IMG/VR virus record: IMGVR_UViG_3300031577_000195
Span: 17,064 to 81,063 of that record
Source of the DNA: a virus
Lineage: Duplodnaviria; Caudoviricetes
DNA: 64,000 nucleotides
Strand: one strand, 5' to 3'
Shown here: piece by piece, positions 48,590 to 51,356 of the stretch
How positions within the stretch are numbered: position 1 is the first letter of the stretch
How the letters are laid out: each line of letters begins with the position of its first letter
Made by a program: the position numbers and the translations under genes
Notes under the pieces: generated by a model
Seen by the model: the letters and a program-made list of their open reading frames with translations, nothing else
Told to the model about the DNA's origin: nothing
The model's database searches: none

Positions 48590-49204
48590 TTACAAAGACT
48601 CAAGAAATTCATCATATGTCTTAAAGTCTCTCTTGATATTAGTCATTAGTTCATCCGTAGTTATTTTCTGCTGATTACATACATAGTCAATATATTCACT
48701 GTCGTATAGCTTGCGTCTACGTTTGTTGTTCTTTTTAATTTCAGCAAAAACTAAACCACGATCTACATGATAAAGCTTGTATAAGTAATTAGCCATATCT
48801 ACATCCGAGAAGGTCTGCATAGAACATATCGGACACATGCACATCGGTAATCCATCATCAAAGTAGCTTTTAACCAAGTCATCAATGTCAGTATCGCCCT
48901 TAGATAACTCCGCTAAGTCATTTTGATACTCATTGATCCACTTCTTGCGTGTTTCTTCTGTACAATGCGTGTATTCCTGAGTTGCTTCGATTTGATTTTT
49001 AATTTGAATCGTAAGTTCTTCCTTGAGTTTACTTTTGTCTACATCAAAGTTATCGAAGCAATTGCAAAACTTATGACCGTTAATACATCTTCCACCGCCG
49101 ATATCATAAGGACTTAAATCCCACCCACTATGGCTTTCACCACAGATATCACAGATAAACGATGATGAACTTGAGTTCGTTACAAAAGATAACCTATGTT
49201 TCAA
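48590..49204 (-). CDS. TNSSS-motif protein 1 (Cys-rich)
   Basis: KHRLSFVTNSSSSSFIC; CxxC clusters. Confidence 0.8.
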   Translation of the reverse strand: MKHRLSFVTNSSSSSFICDICGESHSGWDLSPYDIGGGRCINGHKFCNCFDNFDVDKSKLKEELTIQIKNQIEATQEYTHCTEETRKKWINEYQNDLAELSKGDTDIDDLVKSYFDDGLPMCMCPICSMQTFSDVDMANYLYKLYHVDRGLVFAEIKKNNKRRRKLYDSEYIDYVCNQQKITTDELMTNIKRDFKTYDEFLESL

Positions 49205-49205
49205 A

Positions 49206-49547
49206 TCAAGTCCCCCATACTTTTACTTTTTCAGAATCAATAGCACCAAGACAATAAATAATATTGTCAACTGTGTCATCTTCATTTGTGAATTCTTCTG
49301 AACCAACATTCCAGTTATCTAGTTTTATTCCATAAGTAGCAGTACCATTGATTCTTTTAATAACTTCATCAATATATTTATCAAACAATAATCCTTCAGT
49401 ATCGTAATCATCTATTGACCTCTTGATATTATTCTCTTGTTTCATTAGTTCTTGCCTAATGTCATCATTAGTTGCATCATTTCTAATAGCAATTACGAAT
49501 GATGATGAACTTGAGTTCGTAACAAAAGATAACCTATGTTTAGCCAT
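49206..49547 (-). CDS. TNSSS-motif protein 2
   Basis: MAKHRLSFVTNSSSSSFVI; ATG 49547 with RBS GGAGG. Confidence 0.8.
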   Translation of the reverse strand: MAKHRLSFVTNSSSSSFVIAIRNDATNDDIRQELMKQENNIKRSIDDYDTEGLLFDKYIDEVIKRINGTATYGIKLDNWNVGSEEFTNEDDTVDNIIYCLGAIDSEKVKVWGT

Positions 49548-49890
49548 CGTAAAATCCTCCGTAATCAAAGAATACATCATCAATATCTACAGCTATTCCA
49601 TTTGATTTTGCCCTATCGATGAACATTTGTTTAATCTGTGGTATTGTCATCGTTTGAAGTAATATAGGTATACTTTCGGTTAGCGTAATGATATCACCAC
49701 AGTAATTTCGGTCACTTGATGATGTATCAAAACCTTTTGGTGTGTCTTTTGTTGTCTCATAACTTTCGTCATACCAATGGTCTTCTTCTTTTTTTAACTT
49801 AAATTGTTCTGCATATTTCTCAGAATGTACGCCAACCACAATAAAACTTGAGGAACTACTATTAGTAACAAAAGAAGTCCTTACTTTCAT
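49540..49890 (-). CDS. TNSSS-motif protein 3
   Basis: MKVRTSFVTNSSSSSFIV. Confidence 0.8.
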   Translation of the reverse strand: MKVRTSFVTNSSSSSFIVVGVHSEKYAEQFKLKKEEDHWYDESYETTKDTPKGFDTSSSDRNYCGDIITLTESIPILLQTMTIPQIKQMFIDRAKSNGIAVDIDDVFFDYGGFYDG

Positions 49891-50936
49891 ATACTTCTCT
49901 CCTTTCGATTACATAAGACTATCTCTTGAACCAATGGACAACCTCCCATACATACCCTTTGTTCATCACATCCTTTACATGAGTTTTTCATATGGTTTCT
50001 GAAGAATTCAAACTCTATACTATCCCATGCTTCTTTAATGGTGTTGATGCGAAGGTTAAGACCATATATATGACTTTGGTCAAAACTACAGGGTACTGCA
50101 ATCATATCTGAAGATATATACATTGAATACCTTGCACCCTCACAGGTATCTACAGAATCAAAATTGATATCTGCAAAATTCACAAGCCCAGGCACAGTGC
50201 AGCTATCGAAACCAACTTTAAACGGATGGTCTTTACTAACGAGACTAAAGAACTCTTTAAGCCTTGGGTCATCATAAGCTAATATATCAGCTTTACTTCC
50301 GCAGCCTACATTTTTATGCAAAAGGAAAATTATTGCATTGATAGGAAGAAATTCGTTGTCTTTAAGTATCTCTATGGCTTCATCTATTGTTTTATTTGAA
50401 AGTACATAGTGGATATTTGTAGTACAACCGGCATCAATAAACCTATGAAGTGCTGCAAACGTATAGTTCTGGCGATACCACGATACTGCTACAGCACCAC
50501 AGTATTCCTTAGTTAGCCTAATTTCCTCATCAGTTAAATTAAGACCACTGGTTGTATAATTAGGAACAATATTTTTACTTTTGGTATAACTTAAGATTTC
50601 CTCAAAATTCTCATGCTTGTTAGGATCACCATGACCACCTAAAGCTATCTGAAAAACTTTCCCTTCACATTGATCGATAATATTTTTGTAATCCTTAAGT
50701 TTCATGTTTGGCTTTTGATTCAGTAGTCCACCTTGGTAACATCCTACAGTGCATTGAGCAGCATGAGCGCAGCTACCCATGACTCCTATGTCTATTAACT
50801 CAGGATAACTTGCCATAAATGGGTCAATTCCGGTGTCCCTACCTCTGTCGATAACTCCTGAACGAACATAGTAGCCATTTTCAGTATTAAACTTTGCCAC
50901 AAATCTATTTGCTTTATCTACCTTAACTATCTCCAC
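49887..50936 (-). CDS. Radical SAM / SPASM-domain protein
   Basis: CAHAAQCTVGCY cluster motif, IALGGHGDP, YTTSG; C-terminal C...PC...CxxC...C..GCP. Confidence 0.85.
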   Translation of the reverse strand: MEIVKVDKANRFVAKFNTENGYYVRSGVIDRGRDTGIDPFMASYPELIDIGVMGSCAHAAQCTVGCYQGGLLNQKPNMKLKDYKNIIDQCEGKVFQIALGGHGDPNKHENFEEILSYTKSKNIVPNYTTSGLNLTDEEIRLTKEYCGAVAVSWYRQNYTFAALHRFIDAGCTTNIHYVLSNKTIDEAIEILKDNEFLPINAIIFLLHKNVGCGSKADILAYDDPRLKEFFSLVSKDHPFKVGFDSCTVPGLVNFADINFDSVDTCEGARYSMYISSDMIAVPCSFDQSHIYGLNLRINTIKEAWDSIEFEFFRNHMKNSCKGCDEQRVCMGGCPLVQEIVLCNRKERSI

Positions 50937-51114
50937 TATTAGCCGACCTCCTCTTGGTTTATTGCCTGATATATCTTTCGTACAATAAAGGCTCCGGCTG
51001 ATACTATAGCGAATAACATAAGTTTATCTGCTAAGTCTTGTCCTTCCCGTAATATAATACTTGCGACTAAACAGATGTATATCATCCATCCAAACACAAA
51101 GCCATCCATAAGTA

Positions 51115-51149: not shown

Positions 51150-51356
51150 TTAAAACCACCTTTCAAATCTAAAGTATGCATCCCATCCATTATCGAACTT
51201 CTGAGTTATTCCTATAACTTTACCAGCCTTATTATATTCGACTTCAGGTATTCCTATGGGCCTAGCCTTACGGCACTCAGGGCAATCTTCAGCTTCCTCT
51301 TTAGTGTCATACGTAAAGTAACAGCCGTTACATTGCCATACGTGTTTTACTGACAT
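51150..51356 (-). CDS. Small zinc-binding protein
   Basis: CxxC...CxxC. Confidence 0.6.
   Translation of the reverse strand: MSVKHVWQCNGCYFTYDTKEEAEDCPECRKARPIGIPEVEYNKAGKVIGITQKFDNGWDAYFRFERWF

Follow-up and report, generated by a model that had tools for sequence, protein, structure and literature searches.

A radical SAM/SPASM enzyme paired with proteins that share a 16-residue N-terminal tag: a widespread module of phages and bacteria

Here we describe a four-gene module in a Caudoviricetes provirus (IMG/VR record IMGVR_UViG_3300031577_000195), in which the gene for a radical S-adenosylmethionine (SAM) enzyme of the SPASM type is followed by those of three client proteins that share the start M(A)K.R.SFVTNSSSSSF and are otherwise unrelated. 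The window analysed is a 64-kb stretch, positions 17064-81063 of the 81-kb provirus record, and coordinates are given in window numbering. An initial annotation had described the four open reading frames (ORFs), a CX5CX3C cluster motif, SPASM-like cysteines, the shared leader and a 40/41 bp identity between two of its copies. All of these were confirmed, and our ORF check finds the four genes where that annotation had placed them, all on the minus strand:

49887..50936, minus strand: radical SAM/SPASM enzyme, 349 amino acids (aa), GTG start; carries the cluster motif, the SPASM cysteine set and an N-terminal sheet
49540..49890, minus strand: tagged client 1, 116 aa, MKVRTSFVTNSSSSSF followed by an acidic alpha/beta body, isoelectric point (pI) 4.45
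49206..49547, minus strand: tagged client 2, 113 aa, ATG start (MAKHR...), MAKHRLSFVTNSSSSSF followed by an acidic body, pI 4.26
48590..49204, minus strand: tagged client 3, 204 aa, TTG start, MKHRLSFVTNSSSSSF, pI 4.82
49843..49890, minus strand: tag-coding segment of client 1 (codons 1-16), with synonymous codons that differ from both other copies
49497..49547, minus strand: tag-coding segment of client 2, 40/41 identity with client 3 over 49501-49541
49157..49204, minus strand: tag-coding segment of client 3, 40/41 identity with client 2 over 49161-49201

The enzyme and client 1 genes meet in an ATGA at 49887-49890, clients 1 and 2 overlap by 8 nt (49540-49547) and clients 2 and 3 are separated by a single nucleotide (49205); because the gene ends overlap or abut, the arrangement fits translational coupling of the enzyme with its three clients. 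A degenerate DNA pattern for TNSSSSSF has three matches, which are the three clients (shuffled mean 0.01), and no further match anywhere in the 81-kb provirus record. The identity between the client 2 and client 3 copies is bounded by the start codon and the end of the tag, and client 1 encodes the same residues in different codons (26/41 nt identical). Because the codons differ in the one case and the identity stops at the tag in the other, the tag is held constant at the protein level, and one tag has lately been copied or converted without its body. Indeed, a recent duplication or conversion of the leader alone had been proposed at the outset, and the shared DNA ancestry of these two leaders does not extend beyond the tag.

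Downstream of residue 24 the three bodies belong to three different sequence clusters, with mutual profile-profile probabilities of at most 3%. Client 3 has a CxxC, cysteine-rich body (9 Cys) directly after the tag and belongs to a body family that is among the most widespread, with 43 members. In the AlphaFold2 model of client 1 (mean predicted local distance difference test score, pLDDT, of 72) residues 1-12 are unpacked (pLDDT <50) and residues 13-22 form a core strand; fold searches with this model gave no better than E 0.98 in the PDB and E 0.1 in BFVD (Foldseek for the PDB), with a best Z of 3.0 in the VIA wide search. Pfam, NCBIfam and PADLOC gave no match for any of the three clients, and PHROGs gave only phrog_7397, a family of unknown function that matches two of the three with weak E-values and 12/42 members of the client family. 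Across those 42 members Pfam returned nothing consistent. Furthermore, neither megablast with the region nor tblastn with a client found a match among cultured-phage records, and the ESM Atlas offered unnamed viral clusters only.

The enzyme has three cysteines where the motif for the SAM-cleaving 4Fe-4S cluster (canonically CX3CX2C) is expected, spaced C56-x5-C62-x3-C66 (GSCAHAAQCTVGCY), and SPASM cysteines at C323-x2-C326-x5-C332-x3-C336 (CX2CX5CX3C), with GGHGDP replacing GGE. It scores above the cut-off for the Pfam SPASM model PF13186 (23.2 bits against 21.5, E 8.5e-5), slightly below that of TIGR04085 (24.5 bits against 27) and below the gathering cut-off of the Pfam Radical_SAM model PF04055 (15.0 bits against 29.5, E 0.028). 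It falls in phrog_7293 (function unknown; E 1.3e-28), matches several SPASM maturases of NCBIfam weakly, partially and far under their cut-offs, and has weak profile matches to SkfB (2.6e-5) and PqqE. Its AlphaFold2 model, built with 51 relatives, is confident (pLDDT 93, predicted template modelling score 0.91) and consists of a three-stranded sheet at residues 2-25, a barrel and a C-terminal cluster domain. A Foldseek search with this model returned 99 PDB chains (E<=0.001); those listed are radical-SAM enzymes, with which it shares a partial TIM-barrel fold. SuiB leads (E 4.9e-12, TM-score 0.71), followed by PqqE (1.5e-10) and anSME (6e-10), with CteB, SkfB, ChlB, TigE and BtrN as further neighbours; the best are all SPASM or Twitch enzymes, the majority of which act on peptides or proteins, and viperins and MoaA rank far lower. 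By its modelled fold, then, the protein is a SPASM radical-SAM enzyme of the peptide- or protein-modifying type.

Two known identities can be set aside. An anSME is rejected on a TIGR03942 score of 14 bits against a cut-off of 349 and on a tag without (C/S)xPxR, and a prokaryotic viperin (pVip) on a PADLOC E of 0.004-0.009 for the window enzyme and the low rank of viperins by fold. No PqqD-like recognition element (RRE) was detected for the enzyme by Pfam or NCBIfam; at the N-terminus the model has only its three-stranded sheet, and no partner gene that could supply one is conserved. Among close relatives the cluster motif is CX7CX6C or CX7CX8C; in a sister clade at 37-43% identity it is the canonical CX3CX2C, and the final CX2CX5CX3C is missing, which makes that clade Twitch-like. 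Some phages have the enzyme gene as one ORF of ~780 aa with an in-frame intein (L024:1520-3880; L039, L063; P0155-P0183) that begins CLHEDE, ends VSHN before a C, carries Pfam intein and LAGLIDADG domains and sits exactly at the conserved Q|ALGG (GGE-like) motif, in ~28 intein-bearing clusters; an intron was rejected as the source of these split genes, the Rfam scan of the insert being negative. A search for natural enzyme-client fusions found none; what it returned were these forms with an intein or a fused endonuclease, and a few N-terminal extensions of an unrelated kind. There are a few long proteins of 658-1028 aa (P0184-P0189) in which an unrelated N-terminal region of 300-650 residues is joined to a SPASM enzyme of the family, with no tag. 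Relatives at 28-30% identity also occur in T4-like phages of Slopekvirus and Pseudotevenvirus (RB16, KP15, KP27, Matisse), the records being Citrobacter phage CfP1 (L001), Klebsiella phage KP15 (L002) and 170 other T4-like ones; in CfP1 the cluster motif is CX7CX2C and tagged neighbours are absent.

We next define the module as an enzyme of this clade with at least one same-strand ORF, no more than a few kb away, that starts M-K-x-[RK]-x-x-F-V-T-N-S-S-S, which in the window corresponds to the enzyme and three tagged ORFs directly downstream. The window enzyme is 37-74% identical to the enzymes of 197 other module loci. The initial annotation had pointed to genome-neighbourhood analysis, and to co-occurrence of tag and enzyme, as a way to judge its proposal, and the co-occurrence holds in almost every case in both search directions. 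With the tag as seed, viral contigs yielded 522 pattern matches, from which 58 loci were taken; an enzyme homologue (37-59% identity) lies upstream on the same strand in 47/58, and among the remainder several are cut by a contig end and two have the enzyme elsewhere on the contig. The window enzyme alone gave no match as a query against viral contigs, and an alignment query was needed; this found relatives in 320 viral contigs. Among the 80 best, 74 have between one and eight tagged ORFs, always on the strand of the enzyme, and the six loci without a tag stop at most 3.2 kb past it. Run against genomes at one per species, the same query gave 455 loci, most of them in metagenome-assembled genomes (MAGs) of Clostridia, and tagged ORFs are present in 76 of the best 80; of the four others, two end within 120 nt of the enzyme and one MAG has a tagged gene on another contig. 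Across the enzyme-seeded viral and genome loci there is one case of a tagged ORF on the opposite strand.

The tagged gene follows the enzyme immediately in about half of the loci, with varied genes intervening elsewhere, and in bacteria many loci have just one tagged gene (47/80). Clustering of plus-strand ORFs across 139 loci recovers the enzyme and the tagged genes and no third common gene; neither a protease nor an exporter is conserved with the module in these loci. A profile built from 42 client-family members matches 22,061 clusters at E<=0.001 (clusters at 50% identity; 1.84 billion representatives), and Pfam and NCBIfam hold no model for the family. The main concentration of the module is in phages and prophages of Clostridia from gut and rumen, and it is not restricted to phages, being present in bacterial genome assemblies as well; cultured carriers include Clostridiales bacterium CCNA10 (AP018533.1, locus L151) and Flavonifractor sp. 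An92 (L206). In one Oscillospiraceae MAG a 1589-aa ORF (L147:8092-12861) lies ~1 kb downstream of the enzyme-tag pair and could mark a defence island. The four genes are thus one copy of a widespread, unannotated two-part module of enzyme and clients, and we regard the functional linkage of enzyme and tag as real with very little doubt.

The tag has the 16-residue consensus M-K-[IV]-[RK]-x-[DSG]-F-V-T-N-S-S-S-S-S-[FY]. As a control for ascertainment, one half of the tag was constrained while the other was counted. With residues 1-8 constrained, T9 is kept in 319/326 unique N-termini, N10 in 322, S11 and S12 in 320 each and S13 in 311; with residues 11-16 constrained, K2 is kept in 254/257 and D6 in 229/257, and R/K4, F7, V8, T9 and N10 are nearly fixed. 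Position is held as closely as sequence: the Thr is residue 9 in 183/187 proteins, and in the enzyme-seeded loci the motif almost never occurs away from the N-terminus. The four exceptions begin MA or MC, starts that lose Met1 under the usual rule for methionine removal, and they would therefore regain the common register; in client 2 of the window, which has an MA start, loss of Met1 would likewise restore the usual spacing.

What follows the tag is highly variable. Beyond residue 24, 421 tagged proteins sort into 68 BLAST clusters, of which the 16 largest, compared by hhalign, include only two related pairs. The bodies being unrelated, the tag is the only target that they have in common; it is a portable module on interchangeable bodies, as the initial annotation had proposed, and no strand of a single known fold. 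Clients span 80-1062 aa. Of the small bodies 91% have a pI below 5, compared with 28% for control ORFs taken from these loci, and 64 larger tagged proteins, mostly from bacterial assemblies, include 11 with BspA-type leucine-rich repeats (LRR_5), seven with BRCT and one with TIR domains. Such LRR, BRCT and TIR bodies are binding or signalling modules, not enzymes, and they are usually encoded by a single gene right after the enzyme (L207:1186-3417, L212:7069-8766, L220:7082-9730, L170:7066-10254 and others).

The tag also varies with the enzyme that accompanies it. Tags beside the short enzymes with CX3CX2C have K4 in 17/19 cases, and those beside expanded-loop, full-SPASM enzymes have R4 in 201/205. 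Residue 6 is uniform in 90/97 loci with several tags (mixed in seven), being Ser in all three clients of the window and of L006 and Gly in all three of another lineage despite unrelated bodies; residue 16, in contrast, mixes F and Y in 33/97. Residues 4 and 6 thus follow enzyme lineage, a pattern that fits recognition of the tag by the enzyme of its own locus.

In the window, the module lies within a long minus-strand gene run that has no terminator-like site inside it and that also holds the following genes:

53549-52686, minus strand: DnaG-type primase
52587-51442, minus strand: DnaB-type helicase
51150-51356, minus strand: rubredoxin-like zinc-ribbon protein, 68 aa, two CxxC pairs
50939-51109, minus strand: membrane protein, 56 aa, directly upstream of the enzyme
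after the three client genes, minus-strand run: ORF of 47 aa
47570-48358, minus strand: protein with matches to PHROG 'exonuclease' families, 262 aa (phrog_2139, 1.5e-16)
after the 262-aa protein, minus-strand run: deoxynucleotide monophosphate kinase

A promoter-like site (51402-51374) precedes the zinc-ribbon and membrane-protein genes, neither of which is kept in other module loci, and the 262-aa protein has no Pfam match and a cysteine-rich end, CTTYCGCNISCPYY. A link of the module to the replication region, or to nucleotide or DNA modification, had been suggested from this setting and was not upheld; because the neighbours of the module vary across the 139 loci, adjacency to replication genes in the window carries no weight.

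We propose that the enzyme binds and modifies the N-terminal tag of its clients, and put the probability of this explanation as a whole at about 0.42. The tag would be a free N-terminal tail ahead of an otherwise folded body. The enzyme would grasp K2 to V8, the first half of the tag, perhaps as a strand paired with the enzyme's small N-terminal sheet, and the invariant T9-N10-S11-S12-S13 stretch would be threaded into the barrel, where the 5'-deoxyadenosyl radical would take a hydrogen, from a Ser or Thr carbon as the obvious first step, before the auxiliary clusters finish an oxidation or a cross-link in or adjoining the tag. Candidate reactions are conversion of Ser to formylglycine, as by anSME, or a Thr/Ser cross-link as in SuiB-type enzymes. 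One enzyme would in this way mature many unrelated, mostly acidic binder proteins, co-made with phage replication genes and plausibly used against host defences. The parts of this proposal differ in strength. Enzyme and tag travel and vary together across the loci compared, in clients that have no other common feature, and direct recognition of the tag by the enzyme is probable. A covalent change in or adjoining the tag falls a little short of an even chance; as nothing is shared by the bodies, any such change at a defined place has to lie within the tag or beside it, and T9-S13 is its likely site because these positions are near-invariant as Thr, Asn and Ser and not as any polar residues. An anti-defence role of the clients is a reasonable guess, though on balance unlikely, and is made because the bodies are acidic, because larger bodies are often LRR or BRCT binding modules, with a TIR fusion as well among the bacterial copies, and because the genes are made alongside early genes.

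Several points weigh against this proposal. The chemistry is known for no member of the module, and by analogy with ribosomally synthesised and post-translationally modified peptides (RiPPs), where the conserved piece is usually a handle, conservation of the tag would not mark the residues that are modified. Because the loops of the cluster are of expanded form, with CX5CX3C in this enzyme and CX7CX6C in others, and the PF04055 score lies below its cut-off, canonical SAM cleavage is not certain. The tracking of tag and enzyme amounts to ~2 changes on the enzyme tree for the K4/R4 split and seven for residue 6, and covariation between enzyme columns and residue 6 gives three supported independent pairs, a number that cannot reach significance. 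Uniformity of tags within a locus could come from gene conversion among tags instead of co-evolution with the enzyme, and the 40/41-nt pair in the window is an example of just such tag-to-tag conversion. Finally, the enzyme has relatives in T4-like phages, and the one examined, from CfP1, stands without tagged neighbours.

A serious rival, though an improbable one, is that the tag serves as a docking handle and stays unchanged: it would recruit a client to the enzyme, the body would bring a target or signal, and the enzyme would modify that target or make a product, much as F-box proteins are arranged on SCF. The linkage and the tag-enzyme tracking fit this arrangement equally well, the conserved piece is a handle in known leader-dependent systems, and the larger bodies are of the kind that binds (the 11 LRR_5, seven BRCT and one TIR among 64). 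However, the buried active site of a radical-SAM enzyme could hardly serve many unrelated targets, and the clients offer nothing common besides the tag; moreover, the serine run is invariant as Ser and not just polar or flexible, which is unexpected of a handle or linker.

It is also conceivable, as a distinctly unlikely alternative to modification of the tag, that the tag is an assembly motif, a strand-turn-strand (beta-arch) that joins tagged proteins in the manner of amyloid-like signalling motifs or the effector-associated adaptor domains of NLR-type systems, with the enzyme regulating or locking the assembly. Its pattern, K-h-R-x-D-F-V-T, a polar N/S turn and F-h-h, suits such a strand pair, several tagged genes are present per genome and fusions to TIR and LRR bodies exist; yet this reading leaves unexplained both the need for one enzyme family at nearly every locus and the fixed distance to a free N-terminus, and it sits poorly with the bacterial loci that have a single tagged gene.

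Short leaders on unrelated proteins can have other readers. In the internal-protein locus of phage T4, tandem unrelated genes with exchangeable bodies share a short N-terminal leader that the prohead recognises and its protease cleaves; unlike these, the module has a radical-SAM enzyme as its constant partner and no cleavage signature was seen. That another machine reads the tag, for capsid packaging, export or degradation, and that the enzyme is co-inherited for an unrelated job (e.g., on a nucleotide), has this T4 precedent, a weak PADLOC pVip match of a clade-B enzyme (4.8e-6) and the place of the window copy among replication genes in its favour, but is very unlikely in view of near-total linkage in two independent seedings with no other common gene, the lack of a conserved protease or a cleavage-type residue past the tag, fold neighbours that modify peptides or proteins with viperins far lower, and a genomic neighbourhood that is not conserved.

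Returning to modification of the tag, the nearest known systems are the RiPP maturases of the SPASM/Twitch type (SuiB/StrB-streptide, CteB, SkfB, PqqE, ChlB), which are the best fold matches of the enzyme and in which, as here, one enzyme gene stands beside several substrates with a short conserved piece and a variable remainder. Instead of short peptides, the partners here are whole proteins (80-1062 aa) whose bodies are unrelated and whose conserved piece consists of the 16 outermost N-terminal residues, and the module has no detected PqqD-like RRE, no linked protease or exporter and expanded cluster loops. The anSME/AtsB enzymes (PDB 4K36-4K39; fold E 6e-10), which have no RRE, are likewise SPASM radical-SAM enzymes and modify Ser or Cys of whole proteins, not of peptides, but the module's clients are not sulfatases, their tag lacks (C/S)xPxR and the putative site is at the extreme N-terminus.

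Radical-SAM maturation of a protein effector has a precedent in phage conflict: in the HXS antiphage system, HxsB and HxsC are radical-SAM enzymes that mature the protein effector HxsA (PMC13128918). That system differs in its enzymes, in its His-Xaa-Ser repeat and in being bacterial with one dedicated periplasmic effector, whereas the module is phage-borne with many clients, and our analysis showed no homology between the two. In the ternary conflict systems with VMAP, FxSxx-COOH peptides occur with radical SAM/SPASM enzymes (Kaur et al. 2020, PMC7159879), again an enzyme gene beside variable proteins with a short conserved terminal motif; there, however, the motif is C-terminal, released by a peptidase and linked to vWA-MoxR/AP-ATPase partners that are not conserved in module loci. 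Ophion (preprint) was considered and is not the module, being a viperin-like three-gene system. A literature search with the exact tag strings gave no relevant paper in the library covered (a human PAF15 peptide matched by chance), and we found no description of the enzyme and tag module in print. The initial annotation's view of an uncharacterised system of enzyme and tagged proteins is thus well supported, as a linkage with likely recognition.

The wider picture may be that a single phage enzyme places a covalent radical-derived change, an oxidised Ser or a cross-linked cap, on the free N-terminal tails of dozens of unrelated effectors, and that the same pair acts in bacteria on LRR, BRCT and TIR proteins; we hold this tentatively, at odds that lean against it. 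The bacterial LRR, BRCT and TIR fusions point to a use of this chemistry in immunity as well. If true, a previously unknown post-translational modification would be used on both sides of the phage-host conflict, as a protein-level counterpart of RiPP maturation. If the tag is modified, the module would represent a new kind of post-translational modification, acting on a very large set of unannotated clients, would carry radical-SAM chemistry over from peptides to folded proteins and might give a portable 16-residue tag for enzymatic protein labelling; it would also offer a way into the early phage proteins that are orphans, of which there are thousands.

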